A stretch of 64,000 nt of DNA from assembly GCF_030028105.1 (NCBI RefSeq), contig NC_092377.1, positions 83,172,569 through 83,236,568 of the forward strand, read 5' to 3'. How positions within the stretch are numbered: the stretch's first letter is position 1; each line of letters starts with the position of its first letter. Of the stretch, positions 1 to 59,095 are shown piece after piece. The position numbers were made by a program, and so were the translations under genes. Source of the stretch: Mobula birostris. Lineage: Eukaryota. Under the pieces are notes generated by a model, which was not told the DNA's origin, made no database searches, and was given only the letters and a program-made list of their open reading frames with translations.

Positions 1-60
1 TGGAAAAGAGTACAGTCAACGTTTCAGGCCGAGACCCTTCAGCAGGGTTGGAGAAAAAAA
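1..60 (-). mobile_element. Penelope terminal-repeat fragment with hammerhead-like core
   Basis: Minus strand reads CTGCTGA-AGGGTCTCGGCCT-GAAACGTT-GACTG; same family as 560-680. Confidence 0.6.
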
Positions 61-559: not shown

Positions 560-1600
560 AGAAATATTCTGGAGCTAAGCACAAATACAATATGCTGGTA
601 GAATTCAGCAGGCCAGGCAGCATCTATGGAAAAGAGCAAACAATTAATGTTTTGGGCCGAGACCCTTCATCAGGACTGGAGAAAAAGGTTGAGAAGTCAG
701 GATAAGAAGGTGGGGGAGGAGAGGAAGAAGTACAAGGTGGCAGGTGATAGGTGAAACTGGGAGAGGGGAAGGGGAGAAGTAGAAAGTTGGGAAGTTAGTT
801 GGTGAAAGAGATAAAGGGCCGGACAAGGGAAAATTTGATGGGAGAGGACAGAAGGCCAAGGAAGAAAGGGACGGGGAATAACCAGGGGGAGGTGATGGCT
901 GGTAGGGTGATAAGGTGAGAGAGGGAAATGGGAATGGGGAATGCTGAAGGAGAGAGGTGAAGCCATTACCAGAAGTTCAAGAAATTGATATTCATGCCAT
1001 CAGGTTGGAGACTACCCAGATGGAATATAAGGTGTTGCTCCTCCATTGTGAGTGTGGCCTCATTGCAGCAGTAGAAACAAAGAGCTTTGAGGCCTTCCTG
1101 ATGGGGGATGGCGGTGTAAAGGAACTAGACATCCAGAGTGAAAATAAGATGATCTGGGCCAGAGAACTTGAAATCATTGAAATGATCGGGAGCATGTGAA
1201 GTGCTGCAGATGTAGATGGGTAGAGACTGAACTAGGGGGGATAAAACTGAGTTGAGGTATGCAGATATAAGTTCAGTGGGGCAGGAACAAGCAGAAACAA
1301 TGGGTCTACCGGGACAGGCAGGTTTGTGGATCTTGGGTAGGAGGTAGAAATGGGGGGTGCTGGGTAAGGGAACTATGAGGTTGGTAGCAGGAAATGGGGG
1401 ATTCCTAGAGATGATAAGGTCAGTGATGGTGTGGGAGAAAATGGTTTGGTGCTCCTTAGTGGGTTTCTTCTCTTGGGGTAAGTAAGAGGAGGTGTCTGAC
1501 AGTCGTCACCTGGTCTCGGCATGGTAGTGGTCAGTCTGACAGATTACTACAGCACCCCATTTATCTGCGGATTTGATGATGAGGTTAGGATTTTTGCAGA
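560..1600 (-). mobile_element. Internally deleted Penelope-like element
   Basis: Terminal repeat and purine-rich spacer, then the GIY-YIG C-terminal end (960-1070) fused directly to RT pieces (FSLWMSS; NPNLIIKSADKWGAVV). Homologous to 4876-6765. Confidence 0.8.
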
Positions 1601-1830
1601 GAGAGCGGTTTCTGGAGCAAATGCAGGATTTTGTCTCCAACACCAGGGAAGAGCAGAGCAGGCTAGGGCATAAAGAAAACACAGTAATCATGACTACATT
1701 CAAGAAAGAAGACAAGTATGATCGCAGTAATTACAGAGGGGGTGATACTAGGATCCTCCTCAACTATCTCCTCCCTGTCACAATGTATATTTCATCTATT
1801 AGGAAGCACAGGAGTGGAGGTTCACCACTT
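1600..1830 (+). mobile_element. Degenerate RTE-clade LINE fragment
   Basis: TTFKKEDKYDRSNYRG resembles the pre-RT motif xFKKGDxxDCxNYRGI. Confidence 0.45.
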
Positions 1831-3165: not shown

Positions 3166-3754
3166 TAGCATATGTGATATGCGCTAATTGTGCTCATTGG
3201 GAGCCCATAGGTATGAAAGAATGTTGTGAACCTAGAGTGACTGGCCTCAACAACACACACAAAATGCTGGAGGAACTTAGCAGACCAGACAGGAACTATG
3301 GAAAAGAGTATTGCTGATGTTTCTGGCCAAAACCCTTCGGCAGGACTGAAGTCCTATCTTTTTCTCCACCACAGACCCAATCCCTGAGCAGAGAGGGGTC
3401 AACCAAAACTGTGCCATTGCATCCATCTTTTTCTCAGTCTTTCTCACAGTGATATTCCATCTGAGCTCTATGCACTTATGTATGTACATGTTTGGCAACA
3501 GACCTCCAAGCCAACGTTGATTTTTCCACTAAAGCATATGAGACTATGCGCCTCATACTAAATATCTGGAACCCAAAAAGTCCTCCACAATTTGCTTAAC
3601 GCTGTCCCTTAGCAATCAATACTGTATCCATATCTTCGGTGTAAATGATAATTTAAAAAACTGCACTTAATATTAGTCTGAGATAGAAACAGCCCACCAA
3701 GTTCACACCGATCATCAACCCCCCATTTACACCAGTAGCCTCATTTCATTCTTA

Positions 3755-4810: not shown

Positions 4811-4859
4811 AAGAGAGAGAAAGAATGTGTGTATATAAATAAATAACGGATCCGGTACA

Positions 4860-6765
4860 AGGGGGAGGTGGGGCATTAGCGGAAGTTAGAGAAGTCGATG
4901 TTCATGCCATCAGGTTGGAGGCTACCCAGACAGAATATAAGGTGTTGTTCTTCCAACCTGAGTGTGGCTTCATCTTTACAGTAGAGGAGGCCATGGATAG
5001 ACATATCAGAATGGGAATCGGACATGGAATTAAAATGTGTGGCCACTGGGAGATCCTGCTTTCTCTGGTGGACAGAGGTTAGGTGTTCAGCAAAATGATC
5101 TCCCAGTCTGCGTCGGGTCTCGCCAATATATAAAAGGCCACATCGGGAGCACCGGACGCAGTATATCACCCCAGCCAACTCACAGGTGAAGTATCGCCTC
5201 ACTTGGAAGGACTGTCTGAGGCCCTGAATGGTGGTAAGGGAGGAAGTGTAAGGGCATGTGTAGCACTTTTTCCACTTACAAGGATAAGTGCCAGGAGGGA
5301 GATTGGTGGGGAGGGATGGGGGGGGATGAATGGATAAGGGAGTCGCGTAGGGAGCAATCCCTGCGAAAAGCATTGGGGGGGAGGGAAAGATGTGCTTAGT
5401 GGTGGGATCCCGTTGGAGGTGGCGGAAGTTACGGAGAATAATATGTTGGACCCGGAGGCTGGTGGGGTGGTAGGTGAGGACAAGGGGGACCCTATCCCTA
5501 GTGGGGTAGCGGGAGGATGGAGTGAGTGCAGATGTGCGTGAAATGGGGGAGATGCGTTTGAGAGCAGAGTTGATGGTGGAGGGAAGGAAGCCCCTTTCTT
5601 TAAAAAAGGAGGACATCTCCCTCGTCCTGGAATGAAAAGCCTCATCCTGAGAGCAGATGTGGCAGAGACGGAGGAATTGCGAGAAGGGGATGGCATTTTT
5701 GCAAGAGACAGGGTGAGAAGAGGAATAGTCCAGATAGCTGTGAGAGTCAGTAGGCTTATAGTAGACATCAGTAGATAAGCTGTCTCCAGAGAGAGAGAGA
5801 CAGAAAGATCTAGAAAGGGGAGGGAGGCGTCGGAAATGGACCAGGTAAACTTGTGGGCAGGGTGAAAGTTGGAGGCAAAGTTAATGAAGTCAACGAGCTC
5901 AGCATGCGTGCAGGAAGCAGCGCCAATGCAGTCGTCGAGGTAGCGAAGGAAAAATGGTGGACAGATACCAGAATAGGTTTGGAACATAGATTGTTCCACA
6001 AAGCCAACAAAAAGGCAGGCATAGCTAGGACCCATATGGGTGCCCATAGCTACACCTTTACTTTGGAGGAAGTGGGAGGAGCCAAAGGAGAAATTATTAA
6101 GAGTAAGGACTAATTCCGCCAGATGGAGCAGAGTGGTGGTAGAGGGGAACTGGTTAGGTCTGGAATCCAAAAAGAAGCGGAGAGCTTTGAGACCTTCCTG
6201 ATGGGGGACGGAAGTATATAGGGACTGGACATCCATGGTGAAAATAAAGTGGTGGGGGCCAGGAGACTTAAAATCATCGAAAAGAAGTGTCACAAACATA
6301 GGTAGGAAGGGATTGAACAAGGAGAGATAAAAACGTGTCGAGGTATGCAGAAATGAGTTCGGTGGGGCAGGAGCAAGCTGAGACAATAGGTCTGCTAGGA
6401 CAGGCAGGTTTGTGGATCTTGGGTAGGAGGTAGAAACGGGAAGTGCGGGGTGTGGGAACTATAAGGTTGGTAGCAGCGGATGGGAGATCCCCTGAGCGGA
6501 TAAAGTCGGTGATGGTGTGGGAGACAATGGCCTGGTGATCCTTAGTGGGGTCACGATTGAGGGGTAAATAAGAGGAGGTATCCGCTAGTTGTCGCTGTGC
6601 CTCGCCAAGGTAGAGGTCAGTACGCCAGACTACAACAGCACCCCCCTTATTGGCGGGTTTTATAGTAAGGTTAGGATTAGTGCGGAGGGAGTGGAGAGCA
6701 GAGCGTTTGGAAGGAGTAAGGTTGGAATGGGAACAAGGTGCGGTGAAGTCGAGACGGTTGATGTA
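4860..6765 (-). mobile_element. Penelope-like retroelement (RT + GIY-YIG endonuclease), frameshifted
   Basis: ORFs 6274-6780 (IKPANKGGAVVV, FYLLPKIHK), 5199-6386 (MDVQSLYT, GVAMGT, RYLDD) and 4876-5616 (GVIYCVRCSRCGLLYIGET, PVATHF, QPDGMN). Confidence 0.93.
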
Positions 6766-7381
6766 GCTTAAATTCACCACTTCTCATTCGTTACCTCTGT
6801 TTTCTCCGTTGCTCTCTGTCAATTCTACCCCCATTCCTGTCTGAGCCAGGCACAAGCCTTTGCTCCAACACCAATCAGTTTCACCACCTCCTTGATCAAG
6901 GATGGTGGATGAGAACTAGAGTTAAATAGGTTTCAGGTGATGAGCCTGGAACAAGCAGCAGATGAATCCTTTTAGCTGGGCGGAGATTGCAAGGGGGCTA
7001 TATGTGCTGTCTGGGACGTGTCAGTGGGACCATGCCTGATAGATACCATAATGACATTTCAATCTAGGCCTGACCCATTTCATCCATCTTTGTCCCATGG
7101 CCACTTGACTATTAATTATTGCATTTCTGCCTCCATTTTCCACATCATCAATTATGGAGCATCTTATTTCTACTGAGTCAATTAAGTTGACTGAGGCATA
7201 AGATTGATTTCTCCTGACAGTCTAGACATGGACTTTACAGTTCATAGAGGCTTGATGATCATGTCTCACCACATACAGTATGTGTTTTGATTGTCTTAAG
7301 CTTGGTCTTTACTTACCTCTTGCTACTATGATAAAACCATTTTCCTCTGCCAGCTGTTGTGGCCCTGGGTGCGATTAGGGG

Positions 7382-9119
7382 TACCCAGAAGGAGATAGCA
7401 GAGGTACTTAATGAATATTTTGCTTCAGTATTCACTACGGAAAAGGATCTTGGCGATTGTAAGGATTTCTTACAGTGGACTGAAAAGCTTGAGGATGTAG
7501 ATATTAAGAAAGAGGATGTGCTGGAGCTTTTGGAAAGTATCAAGTTGGATAAGTCACCGGGACCAGACGAGATGTACCCTAGGCTACTGTGGGAGGCGAG
7601 GGAAGAGATTGCTGAGCCTCTGGCGATGATCTTTGCATCATCAATGGGGATGGGAGAGGTTCCTGAAGAGTGGAGGGCTGTGCATGTTGTTCCCTTTTTC
7701 AAGAAAGGGAGTAGAGATAGCCCAGGAAATTATAGACCAGTGAGTCTTACTTCAGTGGTTAGTAAGTTGATGGAGAAGATCCTGAGAGGCAGGATTTATG
7801 AACATTTGGAGAGGCATAATATGATTAGCAATAGCCAGCATGGCTTTGTGAAAGGCAGGTCGTGCCTTACGAGCCTGATTCAATTTTTTGAGGATGTGAC
7901 TAAACACATTGATGAAGGTAGAGCCATAGATGTAGTGTATTTGGATTTCAGGAAAGCATTTGATAAGGTACCCCATGCAAGGCTTATTGTCAAAGCAAGG
8001 AGGCATGGGATCCAAGGGGACAATGCTTTGTGGATCCAGAACTAGCTTGCCCACAGAAGGCAAAGAGTGGTTGTAGACGGGTCATAGTCTCCATGGAGGT
8101 TGGTGACCAGTGGTGTGCCTCAGGGATCTGTTCTGGGACCCTTACTCTTGGTGATTTTTATAAATGACCTGGATGAGGAAGTGGGGGGATGGTTTAGTAA
8201 ATTTGCTGATGACACAAAGGTTGGGGGTGTTGTGGATAGTATGGAGGGCTGTCAGAGTTTACAGCAGGACATTGATAGGATGCAAAACTGGACTGAGAAG
8301 TGGCAGATGGCATTCAACCCAGATAAGTGTGAAGTGGTTCATTTTGGTAGATCAAATATAATGCCAGAATATAGTATTAATGGTAAGACTCTTGGCAGTG
8401 TGGAGGATCAGAGGGATCTTGGGGTCCGAGTCCATAGGACACTCAAAGCTGCTATGCAGGTTGACTCTGTGGTTAAGAAGGCTTAGGGTGCATTGGCCTT
8501 CATCAATCATGGGATTGAGTTTAGGAGCCGCGAGGTAATATTGCATCTGTATAGGACCCTGGTCAGACCCCACTTGAGGTACTGTGTTCAGTTCTGGTTG
8601 CCGCACTACAGGAAGGATATGGAAACCATAGAAGAGGTACAGAGGAGATTTACAAGGATGTTGCCTGGATTGAGGGGCATGCCTTATGACAATAGTTTGA
8701 GTGAACTTGGCCTTTTCTCCTTGGAGCGACAGAGGATGAGAAGTGACCTGATAGAGGTGTTTAAGATGATGAGAGGCATTGATCGTGTGGATAGTCAGAA
8801 GCTTTTTCCCAGGGCTGAAATGGCTAACATGAGAGGGCACATTGTTAAGATGCTTGGAAGTAGGTAGAGAGAAGATGTGAGGGGTAGGTTTTTTTACACA
8901 GAGCGTGGTGAGTGCATGGAATGGGCTGCTGGCGACGGTGGTGGAGGCAGATATGACAGGGTCTTTTAAGAGATTCCTGAACAGATATATGGAACTTAGA
9001 AAAATAGAGGGCTATGGGTAACCCTAGGTAATTTCCAAGGTAAGGACATGTTTGGTACAGCTTTGTGGGCCAAAGGACCTGTATTGTGCTGTAGGTTTTC
9101 TACTTTTTCTATGTTTCTA
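7382..9119 (+). mobile_element. CR1 LINE, 5'-truncated, with stop codons
   Basis: KSPGPD, NYRPVSLTS, YLDFRKAFDKVPH, GVPQGSVLGP, KFADD; TTTCTATG tail at ~9100-9119. Confidence 0.95.
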
Positions 9120-10240: not shown

Positions 10241-13040
10241 AGAAACATAGAAACATAGAAAATAGGTGCAGGAGTAGGCCATTCAGCCATTCGAGCCTGC
10301 ACCGTCATTCAGTATGATCATGGCTGATCATCCAACTTAGAACCCTGTACCAGCCTTCTCTCCATACCCCCGATCCCTTTAGCCACAAGGGCCATATGTA
10401 ACTCCCTCTTAAATATAGCCAATGAACTGGCCTCAACTGTTTCCTATGGCAGAGAATTCCACAGATTCACCACTCTCTGTGTGAAGAAGTTTTTCCTCAC
10501 CTCGGTCCTAGAAGGCTTCCCCTTTATCCTCAAACTGTGACCCCTCGTTCTGGACTTCCCCAATATCGGGAACAATCTTCCTGCATCTAGCCTATCCAAT
10601 CCCTTTAGGATTTTATACTTTTCAATAAGATCCCCTCTCAATCTTCTAAATTCCAACAAGTATAAGCCCAGTTCATCCAGTCTTTCTTCATATGAAAGTC
10701 CTGCCATCCCAGGAATCAATCTGGTGAACCTTCTTTGTACTCCCTCTATGGCAAGAATGTCTTTCCTCAGATTAGGGGACCAAAACTGCACACAATACTC
10801 CAGGTGTGGTCTCACCAAGGCCTTGTACCACTGCAGTAGTACCTCCCTGCTCCTGTACTCGATTCCTCTTGCTATGAATGCCAGCATACCATTTGCCTTT
10901 TTCACCGCCTGCTGTACCTGCATGCCCACTTTCAATGACTGGTGTATAATGACACCTAGGTCTCGTTGCACCTCCCCTTTTCCTAATCAGCCACCATTCA
11001 GATAATAATCTGTTTTCCTGTTTTTGCCACCAAAGTGGATAACCTCACATTTATCCACATTAAATTGCATTTGCCATGAATTTGCCCACTCACCTAACCT
11101 ATCCAAGTCACTCTGCATCCTCTTAGCATCCTCCTCACAGCTAACACTGCCACCCAGTTTCGTGTCATCCGCAAACTTGGAGATACTGCATTTAATTCCC
11201 TCGCCTAAGTCATTAATATATATTGTAAACAACTGGGGTCCCAGCACTGAGCCTTGCGGTACCCCACTAGTCACTGCCTGCCATTCTGAAAAGGTCCCAT
11301 TTATTCCCACTCTTTGCTTCCTGTCTGCTAACCAATTCTCTATCCACATCAATATCATACCCCAATACCGTGTGCTTTAAGTTTGCACACTAATCTCCTG
11401 TGTGGGACCTCATCAAAAGCCTTTTGAAAATCCAAATATACCACATCCACTGGTTCTCCCCTATCCACTCTACTAGTTACATCCTCAAAAAATTCTATGA
11501 GATTTGTCAGACATGATTTTCCTTTCACAAATCCATGCTGACTTTGTCCGATGATTTCACCGCTTTCCAAATGTGCTGTTATCACATCTTTGATAACTGA
11601 CTCCAGCATTTTCCCCACCACTGATGTTAGGCTAATCGGTCTATAATTCTCCGGTTTCTCTCTGCCTCCTTTTTTAAAAAGCAGGGTTACATTAGCCACC
11701 CTCCAATCCTCAGGAACTAGTCCAGAATCTAAAGAGTTTTGAAAAATTATCACTACTGCATCCACTATTTCTTGGGCTACTTCCTTAAGCACTCTGGGAT
11801 GCAGACCATCTGGCCCTGGGGATTTATCTGTCTTTAATCCCTTCAATTTACCTAACACCACTTCCCTACTAACATGCATTTCTCTCAGTTCCTCCATCTC
11901 TCTAGACCCTCTGTCCCCTACTATTTCCAGAAGATTATTTATGTCCTCCTTAGTGAAGACAGAACCAAAGTAGTTATTCAATTGGTCTGCCATGTCCTTA
12001 TTCCCCATAATCAATTCACCTGTTTCTGTCTGTAAGGGACCTACATTTGTCTTAACCAATCTTTTTCTTTTCACATACCTATAAAAGCTTTTACAGTCAG
12101 TTTTTATGTTCCCTGCCAGTTTTCTCTCATAATCTTTTTTCCCTTTCCTAATTAAGCCCTTTGTCCTCCTCTGCTGAACTCTGAATTTCTCCCAGTCCTC
12201 AGATGACCCACTTTTTTCGGCTAATTTGTATGTTTCTTCTTTGGAATTGATACTATCCCTAATTTCCCTTGTCAGCCATGGGTGCACTACCTTCCCTGAT
12301 TTATTCTTTTGCCAGACTGAGATGAACAATTGTTGAGGTTCATCCATGCGATCTTTAGATGCTTGCCATTGCATATCCACCGTCAACCCTTTAAGTATCA
12401 TTTGCTAGTCTATCTTAGCTAATTCACGTCTCATACCTTCAAAGTTACCCTTCTTTAAGTTCAGAACCTTTGCTTCTGAATTAACTATATCACTCTCCAT
12501 CTGAATGAAGAATTCCACCACATTATGGTCACTCTTACCCAAGGGGCCTCTCACGATAAGATTGCTAATTAACCCTTCCTCGTTGCTCAGTACCCAGTCT
12601 AGAATGGCCTGCTCTCTAGTTAGTTCCTCGACATGTTGGTTCAAAAAACCATCCCATATACATTCCAAGAAATCCTCTTCCTCAGCACCCTTACCAATTT
12701 GGTTCACCCAATCTATACGTAGATTGAAGTCACCCATTATAACTGCTGTTCTTTTATTGCACGCATCTCTAATTTCCTGTTTAATGCCATCCTCAACCTC
12801 ACTACTACTGTTAGGTGGCCTGTACACAACTCCCACCAGCGTTTTCTGCCCCTTAGTGTTATGCAGCTCTACCCATATCGATGCCACATCCTCCCGGCTA
12901 ATGTCCTTCCTTTCTATTGCGTTAATCTCCTCTCTAACCAGCAATGCTACCCCACCTCCTTTTCTTTCATGTCTATCCCTCCTGAATATCCCTCCATGAA
13001 TGTTGAGCTCCCATCCTTGGTCACCCTGGAGCCATGTCTC
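10241..13040 (-). mobile_element. CR1 LINE ORF2 (APE endonuclease + RT), disrupted
   Basis: GGGVALLV, VYRPP, MGDFN, SDHN (endonuclease); KSPGPDG, YLDFQKAFD, GVPQGSVLGP, KFADD (RT); AGAAACAT tail at 10241. Confidence 0.96.
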
Positions 13041-13619
13041 TTTGAATTGGTTCCATGGTTTTCTTTGCTTCATGGCTACCTGTGGGAAGATGAACCTCAG
13101 GATTGTATACTGCACACATACTTTGATAATAAATGTAATTTTAATCTTTTTCAAATCTTTAAATTACTGAGCAGTCTTATATTGGAAATATCCACCACGT
13201 GGCTGGACATAAGTAAGAAAAAAATGCTTAAAAAACATAGTATGTTTTAGGTTTTACTTCTGGAGGTAAATTCCAAACACAAACTTTATCTCTTACTTTA
13301 ATGTCTTCACTTCCTGAATCTTCAGGGCTCTCCCCTTGTAAGGAGTCATATTTCAGAGGTCCCAAGAACTGTTCCTTTTTATACACATTGATACTGTTTT
13401 GTGTGGTGCTCTGCAGAAGCTAGAAGGGAAAGCACAGATGTTAAAACAAAGGACATGAGAGAAATTGTGACCAACTAAGATGGCACACTGCATAATTCTT
13501 TAAATGGACTTTAGTTATTTTCCTTTGGCAAACTACATCATATTTTATGTTTAGCAAATTTAATGAATCACAACATCAATCCATTGTGTTTAAGCAATGC
13601 ACTGTGTCTTGGCAAATCA

Positions 13620-16214: not shown

Positions 16215-16915
16215 CAAAATAAAGGGGAAGTTATTTTCATTTTCTGCTGTTTCTACCATCTTTAAAGAGATTGCACTACCAGGTACTTCTTGCCCTGTCC
16301 TCCCCATACAGAAGATCTTTGGTACTCTTTCTCTTACAACTCCTTGGTCCATTTTTCCATTCCCACCAACCACTCCCCTATTGGCACTTCCCCCTTGCAA
16401 CCACAGGTGATGCAACATTTATCCTTTCATCTCTTCCCTTGCCACTATCCAGTTCTTTTCATTTGGAGTAGTGATTAATTAGCAACTCTTCCAATCTAAA
16501 GTACTGTGTTTGATGTTTGCAAAGTGGAAACCAACACAGATGGTGTGACCACTTTACAGAGCACATGTGTTCAGTCCACAGGGGTGGCCCTCAGTTTCTT
16601 TGCTATCCTGGTGCAGTGTCCCAACCCAAAACATTGATCATCCCTTTGTCTCCATGTATGCTGCTTGACCCTTGAATTTCTCTAGCAGTTTTTTTTTGCC
16701 TTAGATTCCAACATATGCAGTCTCTTGTGTCTCCTGAACTTCCAGTTGCCTGCCAGTTTAATTCTGCATCACACTCCTACTTGGATCTATTTGTGCATGG
16801 CTTCCTGTGCTGTTCGATGGGGCGCAGTGCAAACGTGAGGAACAGCATCTCATCTTCTGTCTGGGTACATTGCAGCTTTCTTGACAGAATTGAATTCCAA
16901 ATATTCATGTAACTT
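16215..16915 (+). mobile_element. Penelope GIY-YIG and terminal-repeat fragments
   Basis: ELPVACQFNSASHS...EEQHL-like segment, homologous to 4880-5300 in the opposite orientation. Confidence 0.6.
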
Positions 16916-18974: not shown

Positions 18975-19100
18975 GTTGACTTTATAAATCCCAAGCGACT
19001 CCTTCGCCGCTTCCGCCAGATTCCTTGCTGGAACCGTGGGATAATCGCATGTAGAAATCCACGGAATATCGGGAGCGAGAGATGTGTGGAAGTATACTGC
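18975..19100 (+). promoter_or_regulatory. Candidate CD93 core promoter
   Basis: TATAAA at 18983-18988, ~200 bp upstream of the ATG, where CpG-rich sequence begins; ETS core GGAAGT at 19088. Confidence 0.4.
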
Positions 19101-19185
19101 TCCACGCTCTCGGGCCAGTTGCCTGAGGTGCCGGCGTGTTGGCCACCTGGCCACCTGTGACCCACAAGGGACTCTGCCTCAGAGG

Positions 19186-20973
19186 ATGTTCCTGCTGCTG
19201 ATGAACAGCTTGCTCTCGGCGGTCACGGCTCGCCCATCGGTGCCCTCGGACACCGTGTGCGGCAGTAATGCTTGTTACACCGCACACCTGGACAGAAAGC
19301 CCTTCCACCAGGCCCTAGAAAGGTGCAAAGCCAACGGGGGTAGCCTGGCGACGGCCAAGAACGCCGAGGAAGCGCTGCTGATCCACAAGCTGCTGGCCGG
19401 ATTCTCCGCCGGACAGCGGCCGAAGAGCAAGTTTTGGCTCGGACTCCAGCTGCCCCCGAGGCATTGCTACCAGCAGCACAAACCGCTGAGGGGCTTCATC
19501 TGGACCTCGGGAGGAGAAGAGACCACCTACTCCAACTGGGCCAGGGAGCCCCGGAGTACCTGCACCGCGCACAGATGCGTTCACATCATCTCCAGCTCCG
19601 GGAGCAGCCTCAGCGCGGCCGGAGGCAACTACAAGTGGCATGACGGCGCGTGCAGACACGGCGTGGACGGCTACCTTTGCAAGTTCAGCTTTAAAGGTAT
19701 GTGCCCTCAGATCACCCTGAGCGGCCCGGGTTCGGCCACCTACACTACCCCTTTCGACGCCGAGAGTTCCTCCTTGACCCACGTCCCGTTCGGTTCCATT
19801 GCAGTCGTGTCCTGCGAAGGGGGCTCTCCTGCAGCCGACTATATGCTGTGCAAGGAACGAGACCCGGGGCAGTATGGATGGTCGAGCGATGGACCCTTCT
19901 GCACCCCTCCATCTGGCTGCGACCTTGATAATGGGGGCTGCACACAGATTTGCGTAAGCGCCGGAGGCGGGGGAGGATTCCGGTGTCAGTGCGAACCTGG
20001 GTACCAACTGCGCGGGGATCAGCGCTCCTGCGAGCCTTGGGACTACTGCCAGGACCAGCCGTGTGAATACAGATGTGTCAGCCATTTTCAGGGTTTCGAG
20101 TGTCTGTGCCCCGTGGGCTACCAGCTCGCGGAAAACGGGAGCAGCTGCGATGACACGGACGAATGCGCGCAGAGGCCATGCGCCCAGATATGTATCAATA
20201 CGCTGGGGAGCTTTCGCTGCGATTGCACCCAGGGTTACGCGCTGATTGACAGCCAGTGCAGAGATCTGGATGAATGCTTTGGCCATCCCTGTGACCACAT
20301 CTGCCAGAACACCGTCGGCTCGTACAGGTGCTTTTGCAGAGCAGGCTACCGACTCCAAGAGACCTTCTGCGTGGACATTGACGAGTGCACAACACACCCC
20401 TGTCAGGGGACCTGCTCCAACAGCGAAGGCAGCTTCCAGTGTTCCTGCAGCCAAGGCTACGAGCTCGCGGAGGATGGAGAAAGTTGCATTCCGGCAGATG
20501 TGACCACCTTGCTCACCTCCACTGCCCAGCGCTGGGACACTACGGCGGGAGAGTGGGATCCCACTACACCGGGCGCACTGAGGGAACTCAGCTCTGATTG
20601 GGAAACGTCCTCCGTCTCATTAGTGGGTCCGTTCACCAAGATGGGTGCGGCGGCGGAGAGCACCACTGTAGACTGGACCCCCGTTCCTTCGCCTACAACA
20701 GCGCAACTCTCCGAGAAGCACGGCCCTGCCAGTCTGTCGTGGGTGCTGATGGGCGCTCTGGGCTCCGTGGCTGCGCTGCTGCTCGTCCTGTGTGTGGTGG
20801 GTTTCATCATCTGCCTTCGCAACCGGTCGCCCAAAGAGAAGGGCAGCAACGCCGGAGATTACTACAGCTGGGTGCAGTCAACGGAGCAATCCCCATTCAG
20901 GGCCTCCTATGTCAGGTGCAGCCGTTCAAGCGATAATTACATCGAGATTGAAGCCAGCCAAACCGAGGTATAA
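19186..20973 (+). CDS. CD93: CD93 (C1qRp), group XIV C-type lectin type I membrane protein, ~595 aa
   Basis: The first in-frame ATG (19186) gives a signal peptide, MFLLLMNSLLSAVTA. It is followed by a CTLD (FWLGLQL, YSNW, WHDG), a sushi-like domain (YTTPF...VPFGS), five EGF repeats (three cbEGF: DTDEC, DLDEC, DIDEC), a Ser/Thr-rich stalk and a TM helix. The tail has NAGDYYSWV, resembling the NAADSYSWV of human CD93. Adjacent to THBD. Confidence 0.93.
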   Translation: MFLLLMNSLLSAVTARPSVPSDTVCGSNACYTAHLDRKPFHQALERCKANGGSLATAKNAEEALLIHKLLAGFSAGQRPKSKFWLGLQLPPRHCYQQHKPLRGFIWTSGGEETTYSNWAREPRSTCTAHRCVHIISSSGSSLSAAGGNYKWHDGACRHGVDGYLCKFSFKGMCPQITLSGPGSATYTTPFDAESSSLTHVPFGSIAVVSCEGGSPAADYMLCKERDPGQYGWSSDGPFCTPPSGCDLDNGGCTQICVSAGGGGGFRCQCEPGYQLRGDQRSCEPWDYCQDQPCEYRCVSHFQGFECLCPVGYQLAENGSSCDDTDECAQRPCAQICINTLGSFRCDCTQGYALIDSQCRDLDECFGHPCDHICQNTVGSYRCFCRAGYRLQETFCVDIDECTTHPCQGTCSNSEGSFQCSCSQGYELAEDGESCIPADVTTLLTSTAQRWDTTAGEWDPTTPGALRELSSDWETSSVSLVGPFTKMGAAAESTTVDWTPVPSPTTAQLSEKHGPASLSWVLMGALGSVAALLLVLCVVGFIICLRNRSPKEKGSNAGDYYSWVQSTEQSPFRASYVRCSRSSDNYIEIEASQTEV

Positions 20974-21111: not shown

Positions 21112-21329
21112 GACATATGAACGGGCACGGACTTGAAATATTAACTCTGTTTATCTCTCCACGGCTGCTGCCTGTCCTGCTGAGTAGTCAGCACACTTCT
21201 GTACCATACAGGTGGTGGGCACTCGGCCCGTCAATCTGACAGCAGCAGCTCTCAGAACACATAAATTAATCCCATTCCTACATTTATCTCCCTCTAGCCT
21301 GTCTTGATGACATGCCTATCGGCTTTTTC

Positions 21330-28645: not shown

Positions 28646-29429
28646 TGCTGGTTTCAATGCCCTTAAAATAAAATAATTCTTTATTAAAACCAACTTTCTT
28701 TTTCTTCTCTCTCTTTGTCTATCTCCATCTCTCATTCACATGCTGGTTTCCCAATATCAGCTTTGCTTCCCTCCCCTACCGGCACAATCTGCTTGTCATC
28801 TTACACCTCTCCTCAATCCACCAATCTCCTGGGACTCCTTTATCACTGCCCCTCTTTTCATCTTTTATACCGGCCATCATGAATGTCCATGATGCAGGGG
28901 TTCAAGCAGAAATATTGACAATTCCTTCCCACTATCTCTCTTCCACTCCAATGTTGCTCAACTAGTTGAGTTCTTCCAGCATATTGTTTGTTGCTCCAGA
29001 TTTCAGTATTTGCAGTCTCTTGTGTCTCCAGGAATTTTTATTTTGAATACTGATTCCCATTTTTATCAACAAGCTCATATCCCATAACACCTAAAAGATG
29101 TCCAATTCCTGACAATCGCGAACAATCCTTAATAATCCTTACAGGGGAAGATCATTAAGTTCTGGACAGACCAAACCATGTCTTTTGCTGAATTTGTTAT
29201 TTTCCAGCACCTACTGATGTTTGTTTCAGAATATTTCCCTGGAAACAGCCCCCAGAAGGGAGTCCTTTATTATGCAGACTCTTAGGATGAACGTTAACAA
29301 AGACCATTGCATCCCTTTTCATAACTTCTTGGCCAACACACAATCTACATGTAAGCGGGGGAGGGGTGATGCTTATGATATAAGTTAATTTCTGAAAGTA
29401 GAAATATTGTGATATTCAAATACAAAAGT

Positions 29430-31344: not shown

Positions 31345-31592
31345 GATACAAGAGTCTTTAGATGTTGGGACCTACAGCCAAAAAAACAAGCTGCTAGAGG
31401 AGCTCAGCAGGTCAGACAGCAAATGACAGCAGTAAATGGACAGCTGCCATAGCTGTAGGAGAAATACCTTCAGTCCTGATGAGGAGTCTCAGCCCAGAAC
31501 ATCGACTGTTTACTCTTTTCCATAGATGCTGCCTGACCTGCTCAGTTCCTCCAGCAGATCGTTTGAGTTTCCAGCATCTGCAGGTTTTCTCA
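31345..31592. mobile_element. Inverted pair of Penelope terminal repeats with hammerhead-like core
   Basis: Left arm GCTGCTAGAGGAGCTCAGCAGGTCAGACAGCA pairs with right arm TGCTGCCTGACCTGCTCAGTTCCTCCAGCAG; CAGTCCTGATGA...ATCGACTG at 31471-31508. Confidence 0.7.
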
Positions 31593-35014: not shown

Positions 35015-35990
35015 AGAAAACAATCTTTCTTCAGTGTCAGCAAAACAAAAGAGCTGCTCATTGACTTCAGGAAGCAGGGCGAGTACACATCCCTGTATAT
35101 ATCAACAGTGCTGCAAGGGAGATGGTTGACAGCTTCTAATCCTAAGTGTAAATATCACTAACAACTTGTCCTCATTCAACTACATAGAGGCTATGGCCAA
35201 GAAAGCCATCCAAAGCCTCTATTTCCTGTGAAGGCTGAGGATGTTCAGCAATATTTGCAATGACCCTCACCAATTTCTACAGGTGCACCATAGAATGTCT
35301 TCATCTGGATGCCTCACAGTTTAGTATGGGAACTGCTCTGTCTAAATGCCAGAAATTGCAGAGAGTTGTGAACACAGCCCGGTCTACCAACAAACCAGCC
35401 TCCCTCTATTGACTCTGTCTACATTTCCTAATGCCTAGGAAAACAGACAACAGAATCAAGGACCCCCCCCCCCCCCCACCCCTACAACTTCAGTCATTCC
35501 CTCCTTCCTCTTTTCAGACAGAAGATACAAAAAGTCAAGCTGAAGATTTTGGTTCTTCCCCCTTCCTTTCCACTTGATGAAGTGTCTCTCTTGGCCCAAA
35601 ACAATGACTCTTTATTCCTTTCCATAGATTCTGCCTGACCAGCTGAGTTCCTCTGGCATTTTGTGTGTGTTACTCTGGAAGACATAAAAGCTTGAGCACA
35701 CACACCGTTAGTTTCAAGAGCAGCCTCTAATCTGCTGTTATAAGATTTTTGAATGCAGCTTTTGTATGATAAAGATGAACTCTTGGTCTCTCAATCTACC
35801 TGGTCATGGTCTTTGTCCTTTTCCAACTGCACTGCACTTTCTCTGTAACTGTACACTATATTTTACACTCTCTTGTTGTTTTTCCTTTTGTGCTATCTAA
35901 CTGTACTTATGTATGGAATGGCCTGAATGAATGGCATGCAACAAACACAAGTTTTCACTGCAGCACCATGTATGTAACAGCAATATGCAA
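35015..35990 (+). mobile_element. Rex1/Babar-type LINE 3' fragment interrupted by a Penelope terminal repeat (~35550-35680)
   Basis: NNLSFSVSKTKELLIDFRK-like sequence at 35018-35075; poly-C run at 35463-35477. Confidence 0.65.
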
Positions 35991-36309: not shown

Positions 36310-36492
36310 ACAAACACAAGAGATTCTGCAGATGCTGGGCAACACACACAAAATGCTGGAGAGGTTCAGCAGCACCAATATTGAGGAATACCCACTCGAC
36401 GTGTCAGACAGATGTCAAGACTTGCCTTTGATTACCCTTCCATAGATGCTGCCTGATTTGCTGAGTTCCTCCAGCATTTTTTTGCATGCTGC
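36310..36492. mobile_element. Inverted pair of Penelope terminal repeats
   Basis: AAAATGCTGGAGAGGTTCAGCAG ... TGCTGAGTTCCTCCAGCATTTT fold-back. Confidence 0.6.
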
Positions 36493-39905: not shown

Positions 39906-40010
39906 TGAGCTTTGGAGCTATCTGAACGACAAAGCACGGGACAGTGCAAAGGGAAAAGTTATTCCGACCAAGCAAAGTTCTTTTAGCTCAGATTCATCAG
40001 AGGGAGAAAA

Positions 40011-41639
40011 ATGTTCGTACTGTCTATCAGCCTGTGCGCCCTGGTGTCTCTGGTGTATTCGGATCCACAAGAATTCTCACCCGCTGTCTGCGTGGCTAAC
40101 GTCTGCTACAGCCTAAAAAGAGAGGCGAGGAAGTTTAACATGGCCAGAACCAGCTGCAAAAAGGCCGGGGGAGACGCGATGACCGTGAGCACCACGGTGG
40201 CCGCCGAAGCTATCGCGGTGTTGCTGCAGAGAGTGAACGCCGATCCCTCCTCGCACTTCTGGCTGGGGCTGCAGCTTCATCAGAGGACTTGCCCCAGCAA
40301 TAGCAGCCGATTGAGGGGTTATCGCTGGGTGAGCGGGGACAATGACACCGACTACACCAACTGGGGCTCGGTGTCCGAAGAGTGCGGACCGCGATGTGTG
40401 ACCGTCTCCGGCAGGGACCTATGGGTCGACCGCCCGTGCAACAAGAAGGCGAATGGCGTGCTGTGCGAGTACAGATACAACAGCAGCTGCGAACCACTAA
40501 CCCTGCACAACTCTTCCACCACCTTCGTCACTCCTTTCGGTGCCCGGAGCTCCGAGCTGACTAGACTGCCTCGGGGCACCATGGCCGAGGTCTCCCCGTC
40601 GAATATCAGCTTACAATGTAACGGCACTCTTGGCTGGGTGGGTTACGGACCAGGCCCTTGGGTCTGTCAAGTGAACAATGGGGGCTGCAAGCACACTTGC
40701 CAAGAAGGACCTCCGCCCAAGTGCAGCTGCCACGGGGGTTACAGGCTGGACAGTGATGGGTTAAGTTGCCGAGAGGTCGATCCGTGCGAGGAAGAAAAGT
40801 GCGCGCACAGCTGCCAGAACCGGGACGGGAAGGCAGTGTGTTCCTGCGACAGCGGCTACGCGCTGGACGCCGACCACAAGAGCTGCATCGATATCAATGA
40901 GTGCCTGTCCAACCCCTGCGAGCACAACTGCGCAAACACGAAGGGAAGCTTCCAGTGCATTTGCAGGAAAGGCTACGTAATGTCCCAGGATGGCAAGTGC
41001 GAGGACATCAACGAGTGCCCACAAAACGTGTGCGAACACAAGTGCAGCAACACGCTAGGGGGCTTCAAGTGCAGCTGCGAGTCCGGGTACGATATCAATC
41101 CCGATGATCCCACAAAATGCGTTTGGTACTGCGATTCCAGCTCCTGCCGGGCTCGCTGCATCGACGACGAGTGTACTTGCCCGCCTAATTTTATCTTGAA
41201 CGATTTGACTAAATTATGCGATGATATTGACGAGTGCCAATTTCAATGCCAGGGTCACACCTGCACCAACTTCCCCGGCGACTTCAAATGTGAATGCAGA
41301 GAGGGTTACGAGCATAATCAGAATGGGGTTTGCGAACCCGAGGGCTCCGGTGATAACTTTATGTCAGAAGTCCCGACGTTCAAGCCCACCGCGTACCCCA
41401 TCCCCGCCAGTGCCGGCCTGTCGCTCAGTGTTGTCCTCGGCACCATCTTTGCCATCGCCGTGCTCACTTTGATCTGCGCCGGGGTGGGACACCACCTGTT
41501 TAAGAAGAGAGGCAAGTGGCAGACCTCCACCAAGTACAAGTCGGCTAATGTGGAGGAGGACGTTAATCTCAGTCAGGTCACGACCGGCGACAACTGCCAG
41601 CACCAGTACTCCAGTGAAAAATGTAATGTGGGGACCTGA
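40011..41639 (+). CDS. THBD: Thrombomodulin, 542 aa, intronless
   Basis: Signal peptide, CTLD, sushi-like region and six EGF repeats, including the atypical short EGF5 (CDSSSCRARCIDDECTCPPNFILNDLTKLC) followed by DDIDEC. EGSG glycosaminoglycan motif, TM helix, and tail EDVNLSQV resembling human EVVLQHV. Lies between CD93 and SSTR4. Confidence 0.95.
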   Translation: MFVLSISLCALVSLVYSDPQEFSPAVCVANVCYSLKREARKFNMARTSCKKAGGDAMTVSTTVAAEAIAVLLQRVNADPSSHFWLGLQLHQRTCPSNSSRLRGYRWVSGDNDTDYTNWGSVSEECGPRCVTVSGRDLWVDRPCNKKANGVLCEYRYNSSCEPLTLHNSSTTFVTPFGARSSELTRLPRGTMAEVSPSNISLQCNGTLGWVGYGPGPWVCQVNNGGCKHTCQEGPPPKCSCHGGYRLDSDGLSCREVDPCEEEKCAHSCQNRDGKAVCSCDSGYALDADHKSCIDINECLSNPCEHNCANTKGSFQCICRKGYVMSQDGKCEDINECPQNVCEHKCSNTLGGFKCSCESGYDINPDDPTKCVWYCDSSSCRARCIDDECTCPPNFILNDLTKLCDDIDECQFQCQGHTCTNFPGDFKCECREGYEHNQNGVCEPEGSGDNFMSEVPTFKPTAYPIPASAGLSLSVVLGTIFAIAVLTLICAGVGHHLFKKRGKWQTSTKYKSANVEEDVNLSQVTTGDNCQHQYSSEKCNVGT

Positions 41640-52529: not shown

Positions 52530-53155
52530 AAAGCAACACACACAAAATGCTAGAGGAACGCAGCAGGTCGTTAATAGTCGTCATTTTGGGCTGAACCCCT
52601 TTGTCCAGACTGAAATGGAAGGGGGAAGACACCAGAATAAAAAGGTGGGGGGAGGGGAAGGAGGCTATCTGGAAGGTGATAGGTGAAGCCAAGTGGATGA
52701 GAAAAGTAAAGAGCTAGAGAAGAAGAAATCTGATAGGAGAGGAGAGTGGATCATAGAAGAAAGGGAAGGGGGGGATAGGGGGAGGTGATAGGCAGGTGAG
52801 AAGTGGGAAAAGGGCAGAGTGGGGAATTGAAGAATAGAGGGAGGGAAATTTTTTTACTGGAAGAAGAAATTGATGTTCATGTCATCAGGCTGGAGGCTAC
52901 CCAGATGTATTATAAGGTATTGTTCCTCCACCCTGAGGATGGCTTCATCTTGGTACATGAGGAGGCCATGGCTGGACATGCTAGAACAGAAATGAGAATT
53001 GGAATTAAAATATTCAGGAAGTTCTGCTTTTGATGGATGGAGCGGAGGCGCAGTCCCCCAATTTACATCGGGTCTCACCAATGTAGAAGAGGCTGCATCA
53101 GGAGCACTGGACACAGTAGACAACCCCAGCAGATTCACAGGTGAAATATTGCTTC
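52530..53155 (-). mobile_element. Penelope 3' fragment with terminal repeat
   Basis: RVEEQYLIIHLGSLQPDDMNI (GIY-YIG end), purine-rich spacer and terminal repeat. Confidence 0.8.
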
Positions 53156-56100
53156 TCCAGGAATGAAAAATAATTATGGCAATGTCCTAGACAAAGCAAT
53201 TGATGGAAGATCAACTATTAATTGTAATAAAAGGTCTGTTGCTATTCTAAGAAATAAATAACCTCTTGCCTTTATTTGGGGATGGAGTTAGGAAAGAATA
53301 ATTCTATCAACACTTGCAAAAGGTTTTAAAAAAATAGGTTAACATTTGTGGTATAGTCTTTCATCATAACTTGTGCTCTGAAGTAAATTAATTAAAGTAA
53401 GGTTTTAATGAGTTTTGGGAGGCCATCTTTTGGTGAAGTGCAATAGATTGGATGGATTTGTGATTTAGATTTCCTTGTGTTATTTATGAAATGTAACAAA
53501 GGTTGATAGGTTGTAAGTGTTTAATGCATTGCAGGCTCTTTCAGACACCTCTGAAATGAGTGACCAGTTGTTTATTCATTGGTGAATAATGGTAAAAACA
53601 GCGAGTGCATGCCAGTGCTTGTTAAGTAATGCAATGAATTTTTTTCTGGACTATTAGAACTAAGGGAGACATTTTTCATTCCCCTTTAAGTGGGCATTGA
53701 AGGCAGGTAGCAGTGTTGTATATAATATGTCTGATGGTCCTTTTTGTTGAGGTTAACAGTAAAGAAAATGGGGTAAAAAATCAGTGAATGGTGGGTGATT
53801 TTGCACCCCAGCCAAAGGTGACTCTTTTTCCCCACCCAAGTGCCAGTCAAAGCATGGCATTTCTTGATAGCCCAGCACTTACCGGCAGGATTGTGGTATC
53901 AGAAGAAGATAAATACCAAATTTCTGATGGTAACACCACATCCACAAATGACCTAATGACTAGAGTTTTAACAAATGGTCAAATGAATGTTTCAAAAACC
54001 TCCACTGGAACTCAACAAGTTTGTAGTATTTCTCGGCTTAGGTGTCGACAACTAATCAAAATATATTTGAAAATAATGCAAAACCCATCAAAATAACTTC
54101 TTCATAAAACACCAGGTTTTGCCAACTTAATTGTATAAAGTGCTCTTATTTTTCTTCATTGTTAAACACCATTACTAAATATAGAATGCAATATTTATAG
54201 CCAGGAAAGAAGAGACATTGGCACTGTTTCTGCATTCATCTTTTATTATTTATGACGATGTAAAGTAGAAATAATTATATTAATGTATACAACTTCCTTT
54301 GCAGGATCTTTGATAACATAGTTCAAAATAAATAATATCTAAATCTAATTCAAATCACATGAATTTGTCTACCAAATAAAAAAGCAAAAAGAAAATCTGC
54401 CTGCATTTTTATATTAATTTGTTTAAACTATTTAAGTTTCACCAACATATTATGAACTACATACACTATTGGAGCCACACAAATGCATAATATTTTACAA
54501 ATTCTGAAATTAAAAGGCAATTTTAAACCTTTCGAAGTTTTCAATTTCTTCAAGTGCAACAAGATAATGAAAAAAATTGAGTCAACATGAACAATTTGAT
54601 ACACATGTAAGTAGACACATTTGGCTTGTGCGAGGATAATATTTTAAATATCTGGTAGATGTACAAAAAAAGATAAGGAAATTTTCAGTATCAGATGAAT
54701 GCTGTATTCAATGCTGGTATAATGTTTATTTTGTTTTATTTCCCGATCTCCCAGTGGTGAAACTTGAAACTTAAAAGTCTGCTTCATTGACTAAATTATT
54801 GTAGTGCACATATTTATATATCTTTTAACCTGCATTTCTGCACATCTTTATTAATCTGATTATAAGTGAATGGAAATATTCAGTTCTTTCTTCTAAATTT
54901 ATCATAGTCATAACAGTCTTAAGGAAATTTTGATGCCCGAAAGAATCTATTTTACACAATTTGATGCTTCATTAGTAGCAGAGATAAATGACACCTAGTG
55001 ATTATACACTTGTTTCTAGGTTACAAGGACAACTTGCTTCTTGGCAAGATATACTTCAGAGAGAGGGCTCAGAATTGCCGCAATCTGAGGTGATGATTTT
55101 TTTTTGTTGATGAGACATTAAACCAAAGCTCTCATAGTTGATGCAAAAGATTCTGTGCACCATTTGATATGGATCAGGGGATTTCTTCCAGATAAAATGG
55201 CTATTAATTTGTTTACTACTGCAGAATCTTGTATAAATTTTAACTCTAACACAGTCAATACTGTACAAGCAGTTCATACTTTAATATGTCACTCACCACT
55301 GAGTTCACATTTGGATATTGGGAGAACAGTTTATTCTAAGGTTACCATGATTGTCTTTAGGATTTGTAATAAGTTAAGTGCATAGATTTCGTTTATGACA
55401 GAGGGGAGTTCAGCCAAACCAGCCTTTTATCTTTTCAATTCAAGTAATCTTTAGGAGCGAAAAGACAACAGTAAAATCTAATGAAAACTAATCTTTTCCT
55501 TCTATTTTGGCATATTTTGTGTCACATCTGATGCTGCTTTTGTTCATTAACTTCAAACTGCCTGATTGTAATTGCCTAATTATGCATCATTCTGAAAACT
55601 GCATGCACATAATTTTTGAACGCCAAATGCTGATAAGGTGCTGACAGTGAAAAGCTTTCTGTTACTCCCAAGCAACAGCTTTCTGTCTGAAAGGTGATCC
55701 TTTAACATGATCTCAATCTGTTAGCTGTCTGAATTATTCAGGCACTTCTGCAAACTGAATATTACAAGATTACTGAAGGATAGTGTCTGAATAACTTTAT
55801 GATTATAATGTCTGAAAACAAGTGAATTCCATATGTGAGATAAAAGCTGTCCATTATACTCTAACTTTGCACATTATTATTCGTGTCGAATGAGATTGTT
55901 GTTGATTCATTCAGCCTCTGTCCTTTTTTGTACGGCAAAGGTTCCACATAATCAAAGGAAAAATCCGTATTTTCCCCTTTCCTCTTGAAACAAATTTAGC
56001 GCGCTTTATGATAAAATTAACTTAAACTGTCACAGTATAATTGGCAAGCTACTATTAGAATAAATAAAATTCTTGCCGTGTGCAGGAAATACCGCTGACC

Positions 56101-56772: not shown

Positions 56773-57918
56773 TCACAAGGTGGTTGTTCTTGAGGTGCAA
56801 GTACCATTCCTGTACACGGGGTCAGAAGCGGCGTTACCCGGCTGAAATTCTAGGGGACTACACACTCTGCTCTTTAGCGCAGTGGCGTAATAATCTACTG
56901 GCTCCTCGGTGCCGTTCTCCAGCCAACGGAAGCACAGAATCCTCTGGAAGGATCTCTTAAAATTGTCAGAGAGAAAGCCATAAAGGATCGGGTTCGCGCA
57001 GCTGTTGGCGTAGCTGAGGATAAGGCACAATTGGGTGACCGTGGTGTTGAGGGAGAGGAAGATGTTGGCCAACTGTAGAACGTAGAAAGGCATCCAGCAG
57101 ATAACGAAGACAGTCACCACCATCAACACCATGCGGGTGATCTTTTTCTCGGACCGTCGGCGTTGCTGCCAGCCAGCCTTCAAAGCAACCACTCTCATCT
57201 TCACGATGATCAGGATGTAGCAGAGGCAGATGGCAATGACGGGGATCAGGAAACCCAGCAGGAAAGTGTAGATAACAAAAGCCACTGACCAGGAAGGCTG
57301 GGGCCAAAGAAAGTTACAGTGCACGCCACCGTCCTCGCTGGGCGTAGTTCCCGCGAATATGATGATGGGCAAGATCACAATGAGCGAGAAGATCCAAACG
57401 CAGATGTTGATGATCTTGGCAATTGTGGGTCTCCTGTACCTTGCCGCTTTGATGGGATGGACAACTGCCACGTACCTGTCCACGCTGAGCACGGTCAGGC
57501 AGAACACGCTGGTGAACTGGTTGATGCCATCCACGCTGAGGACGGTGCGGCACATGAGCGAACCGAAGGGCCAGCGTTGTAAGGCAGCCGAAGCGGAGAG
57601 GAACGGGACGCTCAGCATAAAGAGCTCGTCCGCTATCGCCAGGTTCAGAATGTAGATGTTGGTGGCCGTTTTCATCTTGGCGTATCTCAGGATGACGAAA
57701 ATAACCATGGAGTTCCCGATGAGTCCCACCAAACACACGATGGCATAAATGAATTGGATAACCACCATCCGAGCATCCCTTTCTTCCTGGTAAGCGTCGA
57801 ACGAGTAGTTGGAGGGGATATCCGTAACAACATCCAAATGCTCGCTGGACCCATTCCAGAAACCCACCTGGACTGTGGTGTCCCGGTCGGAAAGCAACTG
57901 AAAACTACGCGTACTCAT
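56773..57918 (-). CDS. SSTR4: Somatostatin receptor type 4, class A GPCR, 381 aa, intronless
   Basis: Seven TM helices with GN, LAxAD, DRY, CWMPFY and NPILY, plus the SSTR signature [15 protein letters not shown]4-like segments: [53 protein letters not shown]. Synteny with THBD-CD93 favours SSTR4 over SSTR1. Confidence 0.88.
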
Positions 57919-58099
57919 CTTCTACTGGTACCCCTTCCACTTACCCCTCCCTCAACCCTCTGACGTCTTTCCAAAAAAAAATATTCCCTGCCGCTCTTCT
58001 TTTCTCTCCTCTGGCTCTTTCCATCTCTCTGACTTTAACAAGCCATGATTCCGGCCATCGGTCTCTATCAGACTGAGAGTACCGCTATAGCGAGGACTT

Positions 58100-58454: not shown

Positions 58455-59095
58455 AGGTGTATGTAACGCGACAGACAATCTGCTGGAGGAACCCAGCCGG
58501 TCCAGCAGTATGTATATGGTGAACGGATGGGCTGCAGCGTTGGGTGGAAACCCTACATCATATCCTGATGCTCCTCGACCTCCCGAATTCCGCCAACAGA
58601 TGCTATAGCTTGTTGCTCCGGATTCCGGACCCTACAGACTCCTATGTCTTCAGGTGTATTGAAATACACGCCTGCATTCAAACTTCTGATAGCAAAATAC
58701 ATTCAATTCAGTGTGCAAATAAATGCCAGCAGTCGGAACGGAATCCAAGGAATATGAAGAATTCCTTCGCCTCCGATTGATCCCTTCTCACCTTAATCAA
58801 CAGTGTTACGTGCACAGGTGTTGTACGATTCCCTTCCAAGAAACTTCGCGCTGGCTTGCGTTTAACTTCAGAGTACAGAGGAATCCAAAAAGATCTCGAC
58901 ACAAAACGTCGACTGTCCATTTTCGTCTGAGTTATTTCAGCATCTGTAGTCGATCAAAGTACCCGCATCTGCAGTCTCTTACGCCTCTACTGGGGATTTT
59001 TGATGAAAGGACATCGACCTCAAAGGTTGATTTTCCGATTCCCTCTCCACAAATGCTGCCCGACCTGCTGAGTATTTCCAGCAGATCTTGACCTA
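58455..59095. mobile_element. Cluster of Penelope terminal-repeat remnants upstream of SSTR4
   Basis: CTGCTGGAGGAACCCAGC; AAACGTCGACTG (58904-58915); TGATGAAAGGAC...TGCTGCCCGACCTGCTGAGTATTTCCAGCA. Confidence 0.6.

Follow-up and report, generated by a model that had tools for sequence, protein, structure and literature searches.

The window analysed here, a 64,000-nt stretch of the Mobula birostris genome, contains single-exon host ORFs at 19045-20973(+), 39987-41639(+) and 56773-57921(-), which we take to be related to CD93, thrombomodulin and a somatostatin receptor (SSTR), presumably in the same neighbourhood as in other vertebrates. Fragments at 7335-8045, 10444-13163 and 49477-49950 we assume, from their reverse transcriptase (RT) motifs, to be CR1-like LINEs. 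The window also carries many copies of a short repeated motif. The first-pass annotation had listed eight sites of this motif and had read their consensus as a minimal type I hammerhead ribozyme. All eight are indeed related sequence, with coordinates that were exact or at most 2 nt off; seven are clear in nhmmer (E 1e-31 to 5e-8), and the remaining one, listed at 58885-58915, is a weak partial match at 58893..58921(+) with a marginal E of 0.58. The motif forms the 5′ portion of a repeat of ~110-150 nt with a conserved 3′ tail. An initial profile built from five copies and their 3′ flank detected ~15 copies in the window and the refined profile 17, versus 0 in the reversed sequence.

The copy at 641..678(-) is a decayed minimal hammerhead motif in a Penelope-like terminal repeat (pLTR), with the changes G12A and G16.2A and a broken stem I (core residues follow the hammerhead numbering convention). 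It is flanked by the conserved pLTR 3′ tail (581..640, -) and by an upstream Penelope-like remnant (679..1608, -) comprising a pyrimidine-rich 3′ UTR, a GIY-YIG C-terminus (972-1073) and, after an internal deletion, an RT fragment (1073-1608). The element 3′ end at 52530..53166(-) has the same order, with GIY-YIG at 52866-53166, the 3′ UTR, a decayed motif at 52575-52612 and a tail with a deletion. Both 581-1608 and 52530-53166 are 3′ remnants of Penelope-like elements encoding RT and GIY-YIG. The motif had been said to abut GIY-YIG 3′ ends at these two copies; GIY-YIG ends 290-300 nt upstream of them, so that "abuts" has to be read as across the pyrimidine-rich 3′ UTR.

Among the other listed copies, that at 13..50(-) carries A6C, and its tail extends beyond the window edge; A6C is also found in the short pLTR copy at 3247..3350(-), whose motif occupies 3312-3350 and which begins a few nucleotides before the core. 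At 31471..31583(+), a short pLTR copy has lost the G12/A13 order and G16.2 and is accompanied by an inverted tail fragment (31388-31436), and the decayed motif of the pLTR copy at 35555..35679(+) carries a 4-nt insertion in loop II. The copy at 59000..59086(+) belongs to an old subfamily and has a longer stem II. The motifs listed at 35570, 52575, 58885 and 59000 have decayed further than those at 13, 641, 3312 and 31471. Old copies absent from the earlier list lie at 16603..16690(+), which is of the A9C type, 21119..21185(+), 28888..28986(+) and 58476..58560(-). Two further features lack the motif: a head-to-head pair of tail fragments at 36321..36480, and a young, frameshifted ORF fragment of the same Penelope-like element at 4812..6764(-), which runs from RT to GIY-YIG with 93% DNA identity to locus L230 and whose motif-bearing pLTR is missing. 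The earlier statement that no copy in the window is fully intact holds, as all eight listed sites are broken. The core CUGANGA...GAAA...UH, which is the majority in randomly sampled copies, occurs in none of the window copies, and an Rfam scan of the window, in which a canonical hammerhead with a stable stem III would score above threshold, gave no hammerhead match at E≤5.

The motif and its predicted folding

The consensus proposed earlier is the majority sequence of 144 mid-age copies and is found letter for letter at locus L026. Its layout agrees position by position with the published consensus of minimal type I hammerheads (PMC4209133), and the genome-wide majority likewise retains CUGANGA and GAAA. 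Pairing in stem II is present as had been described, but the stem is corrected from GGG/CCC to the 4 bp GGGU/GCCC with a CUCG loop, position 10.1 being G and 11.1 either C or U. The base inserted between A9 and 10.1 is A in 129 of 138 copies. Stem III is, as noted before, reduced to the palindrome ACGU (15.1-16.1) in the young and mid majorities. Across stems I and II, 87% of cells are paired versus 15-42% in slid registers. The same core and stem pairing recur in the old, mid and young majorities, which vary in the linker 3′ of the motif; in an old group of 7 copies, U-A replaces C-G at 2.1-1.1 and also U-G in stem II. Stem I covariation at the level of individual copies was absent from the random sample (Fisher p 0.64); in 14 hand-picked rows, 3 pairs had changed on both sides, a number reached by 181 of 500 shuffles. 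Stem covariation is weak, neither test being significant, and the folding z-score of an intact copy is only -1.6; both count against the hammerhead reading. Taken together, the sequence evidence supports derivation of the repeat from a minimal type I hammerhead, which makes it a candidate self-cleaving RNA.

Folding predictions suggest that the monomer would be a poor ribozyme. Intact monomers are predicted to adopt a rod (-12.7 kcal/mol versus -10.5 kcal/mol for stems I and II alone) where G5-G8 are paired to the CGUC cleavage region. This fits the lack of reported monomer activity for this class (PMC4209133). With position 0 defined as C3 of CUGA and the scissile bond lying before +28, a 6-bp palindrome, GUCGAC, spans the scissile bond (+25..+30); its dimer is predicted at -10.5 kcal/mol versus -3.7 kcal/mol for ACGU. 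According to these energies, the GUCGAC dimer would be stronger than the ACGU dimer; it would be inactive and could act as a competitor. The palindrome reads GUCGAC in young copies and GUUAAC in old ones.

Carrier element, copy number and decay

The proposed link to Penelope-like terminal repeats is confirmed by locus L223, where the motif is found in pLTRs at both ends of an ORF for RT and GIY-YIG. L223 is a natural single insertion that consists of the motif (cut at +6), the tail, the 1016-aa ORF and a second motif, within a 14-bp target duplication. The first ATG of the ORF lies ~115 nt after the scissile bond. The encoded protein displays YIDD in RT, the CX4CxxC linker CKRNKCYTC and then VIYC..C..CGLLYIGET; it has 101 homologues, the best named one being a shark protein with 69% identity. 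Pfam matches to RVT_1 (E 6e-5) and GIY-YIG (E 8e-3) both stay below the Pfam cut-offs in L223, while GIY-YIG is at its cut-off in L049 and the search was empty for two L043 fragments. A GIY-YIG endonuclease C-terminus is also encoded upstream of long copies. The Neptune/Nematis type is recognised by a CX2-5CxxC linker that precedes a C-terminal GIY-YIG (PMC8557442). Judged from its encoded protein, the carrier is a Neptune/Nematis-type EN+ Penelope-like element, the clade being set by the linker motif alone. It shares with such elements the order of RT and, at the C terminus, GIY-YIG with internal cysteines, the linker, 5′ truncation, inverted truncated partners and an optional tail (PMC8557442).

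In the 4.01-Gb assembly, the exact 28-nt intact core occurs 40,428 times (9,257 with C11.1 and 31,171 with U11.1), versus no match genome-wide for the reversed pattern. Among young forms, the most frequent carries a G10.1-U11.1 pair. The mirror CpG change, G12A, is present in only 2,373 copies genome-wide, although CpG decay yields both changes about equally. This disparity argues that U11.1 was inherited from source elements in which the G-U pair was kept. Similar G-U pairs are included among the published minimal hammerhead motifs (PMC4209133).

To cover copies of all ages, we used a random sample of 95 position-picked 10-kb stretches (950 kb), which contains 189 copies, or ~200 per Mb. Extrapolation gives a genome total of ~8e5 copies, mostly decayed, and at this number it is plausible that the repeat is among the commonest of the genome, as the first-pass annotation had suggested. 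Of the 110 sampled copies spanning the entire core, 38 retain the core letters, and in 13 the core is preserved together with both stems and the strict palindrome. Losses do concentrate at CpG sites, as had been observed in the window: conservation in the random sample is 58-69% at the five CpG core columns, versus 84-96% at the other core columns. One copy elsewhere in the genome lies beside what we take to be an exon of a GDF5/6/7-like gene (L052:2124-3032).

5′ ends and altered cores of the dispersed copies

We mapped the 5′ ends of young copies using the first 100 of 63,155 genome-wide matches to a young-tail pattern, all from one chromosome end, of which 98 are distinct after removal of overlaps. 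Between -5 and 0, 18 of 79 copies at risk end (3.8% per nt), followed by 11/90 at +1..+9 (1.4% per nt); the rate is 0.2% per nt both around the scissile bond (+26..+30, 1/96) and upstream over -140..-12 (12/58). None of the 98 tail-anchored young copies ends exactly at +28, and of 30 ORF-joined copies one has its end at the scissile bond. The 5′ ends therefore concentrate in the 5′ strand of stem I, at the motif's front edge and not at the cutting site. Genome-wide start patterns, which require three mismatched bases before the start and are rough because they differ in length and CpG content, gave 1,588 matches for -4, 1,481 for -3, 452 for +28, 214 for +32 and 179 for -14. Among the first 100 "-4" matches, 14 represent an untruncated older subfamily. 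The +28 count is about twice that of the +32 control, many of its matches being due to microhomology or an 8-nt deletion; a small fraction of cleaved RNA may be compatible with this excess. With its pile-up at -5..0 and few ends at +28, the end map suggests a template that mostly ran uninterrupted through the scissile bond. In vitro, uncut RNA is the main template of an anole element, and cleavage occurs only with the protein (PMC11167929).

The short copies are insertions in their own right, with their own target duplications: in 12 short solo copies these measure 8-15 nt, and in most the 5′ joint shows microhomology of 1-4 nt. An inverted partner accompanies 22 of 42 short copies, a known insertion pattern (PMC8557442, PMC3846280). 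Since the partners lie on opposite strands, they cannot form a double hammerhead in one RNA. Head-to-head pairs joined inside the motif (L004/L005, L102/L103 and L166) are short genomic hairpins, the transcripts of which would be double-stranded. As a cause of the stop at the front edge, a cDNA hairpin was rejected, its predicted stability of -2 to -3 kcal/mol being too weak; a protein-bound pyrimidine tract or a splice acceptor is possible.

Some copies depart from the canonical core. C6 is present in 10 of 129 random copies, versus an A-to-C frequency of 0.8% elsewhere (p 1e-7), and is tied to one short linker type (8/12 versus 2/117 in others, p 1.4e-8). Besides the window copies at 13-50 and 3312-3350, examples are L135:9425-9511 and L324:4527-4608. 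The A6C group has a mean distance of 9.7% from its own majority, compared with 8.8% for the young family, and its 10 copies in 950 kb extrapolate to ~40,000 genome-wide. In terms of sequence, it is likely that one fairly young subfamily has spread with an altered catalytic base. In other hammerheads, A6C is reported to reduce Mg2+-dependent cleavage by orders of magnitude while sparing activity with Mn2+ (PMC7151607). The natural A6C hammerhead of phage Bcep176 has the same core, CUGC instead of CUGA, but is a full ribozyme, whereas here a putative minimal motif sits in an amplified vertebrate subfamily (PMC7151607). C9 is found in 9 of 132 random copies, in an older and more decayed group; older A9C copies (CUGAUGCA) at 16603-16690 and 28888-28986 of the window and at L128:6786-6873 are 28% from their own majority.

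Possible role of the hammerhead in copying

The motif is of the minimal hammerhead kind already described in metazoan Penelope-like pLTRs, and its arrangement is published (Cervera and de la Peña 2014, PMC4209133). Shared features are CUGANGA with an extra base, a G-led stem II, GAAA-C-G-U-H without loop III, a short stem I, a U-rich 5′ flank, presence in both terminal repeats and a predominance of solo copies, while the 4-bp stem II is short here. With the ray, the class described in 2014 gains a lineage and a very large copy number: at least 40,428 intact copies compared with ~4,000 in coelacanth and ~9,000 in Xenopus, numbers that come from different search methods, and a word search of the supplement of PMC4209133 and a portion of its alignment yielded no cartilaginous fish. 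What goes beyond the known motif is the position of 5′ ends at its front edge, the A6C subfamily and the common G10.1-U11.1 young form. Because of their number, the copies constitute a data set on what hammerheads do for Penelope-like elements, a role called unclear in PMC8557442.

Several explanations compete for the 5′ ends. The pile-up could reflect a transcription start, with an initiator-like sequence near A-4, or else a 3′ splice site made of the pyrimidine tract and the AG at -4/-3, rather than a stop on the template. An AG at this position after a pyrimidine tract is common to the young and mid subfamilies, and an intron of D. virilis ends at helix I (PMC4209133); the 1-4 nt microhomology at the joints is also in its favour. 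However, 30 of 133 copies run on into the ORF start, of which 14 extend to +12 and 7 of the 14 go on beyond -25, so that many templates began further upstream. Moreover, there is no G excess before A-4 that would indicate a cap (~33 G, 27 A and 40 C in the first 100 matches, counted by eye), and no spliced first exon is shared upstream of the 30 loci viewed. We consider this explanation a genuine possibility, though one we lean against. Far less probable, to the point of being nearly dismissible, is an independent non-autonomous element, a retrozyme or SINE, built on the motif. Most copies are short, and animal retrozymes derive from pLTRs (bioRxiv 10.64898/2026.07.22.740005), but the 5′ ends are ragged, ~46 of 98 young copies extend into the 3′ UTR beyond -140, inverted partners accompany half of the short copies, and the loci viewed contain no head-to-tail arrays, whereas non-LTR retrozymes are defined as tandem arrays of ORF-less hammerhead units (same preprint).

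Other explanations concern cleavage itself. The ribozyme might cut and the unit RNA be religated into a circular template, as proposed for Penelope-like elements (PMC4209133), in which case the scissile bond would leave no mark; this is consistent with copies that read through the scissile site, and cut and religated RNA would leave the same DNA record as uncut RNA. Yet it leaves the pile-up at -5..0 unexplained, and the anole RNA-seq described in PMC11167929 has no reads starting or ending at the site, which makes circles improbable in our view. A rather better, but still doubtful, case can be made for a vestige, a former hammerhead whose cleavage is no longer needed and which is kept as a part of the pLTR required by a protein or promoter. 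The A6C group, linked to one linker type and similar in age to the main young family, with a base change that is crippling in Mg2+ elsewhere (PMC7151607), and the older A9C group would fit such a vestige, and so would the lack of effect of hammerhead mutations on insertion of the anole element in vitro (PMC11167929) and the success of other Penelope-like clades that have no hammerheads (PMC8557442). Against it, the 3′ linker differs among the old, mid and young majorities but their core and stem pairing are constant, and changes in the source lineage keep pairing (31,171 G10.1-U11.1 versus 2,373 G12A); A6C copies, for their part, could stem from copying in trans or from a canonical parent one round away.

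The reading we favour, in which we have high confidence, is that the motif represents a minimal type I hammerhead sequence in a Neptune/Nematis-type pLTR, that the window copies are decayed, 5′-truncated insertions of this terminal repeat, and that most copying was likely from RNA not left cut. The element's protein would prime reverse transcription within the tail that lies 3′ of the motif; synthesis would run through the motif and often stop or jump shortly beyond it, with solo and head-to-head stumps as the result. RNA of source elements would cleave after GUC as an ACGU dimer or with help from the protein, and only weakly, given that the rod predicted for the monomer would block the core. 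The copies scattered through the genome are probably inert. Both the junction map and the A6C subfamily suggest that copying can do without cleavage in each round, in agreement with the single in vitro study. A bolder version, which we offer tentatively and think unlikely as a whole, is that the hundreds of thousands of junctions in this genome are a fossil record of uncut RNA being copied as far as a fixed stop signal at the ribozyme's front edge, that a subfamily crippled in Mg2+ by A6C, and possibly preferring Mn2+, was amplified to tens of thousands of copies, and that the hammerhead serves as a boundary or brake instead of a required processing step.

A literature search found no paper that treats the motif in sharks or rays, nor one on 5′ ends located at it, topics that subscription papers, Repbase or Dfam entries and some supplements of PMC4209133 and of the preprint may cover; the 2026 preprint on tandem retrozymes (bioRxiv 10.64898/2026.07.22.740005) includes one chondrichthyan. 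The closest studied system is the hammerhead of the anole Poseidon element PAc (Frangieh et al. 2024, PMC11167929), which also lies at the pLTR-ORF junction, with priming in the 3′ tail and an uncut RNA template that fits the end map obtained here. PAc belongs to a different clade, and its ORF starts within the ribozyme, whereas here the first ATG follows well past the scissile bond. In young copies of the ray element (e.g. L225-L233), the 3′ ends are found at two positions ~35-40 nt apart, resembling the optional tail of Penelope-like elements.
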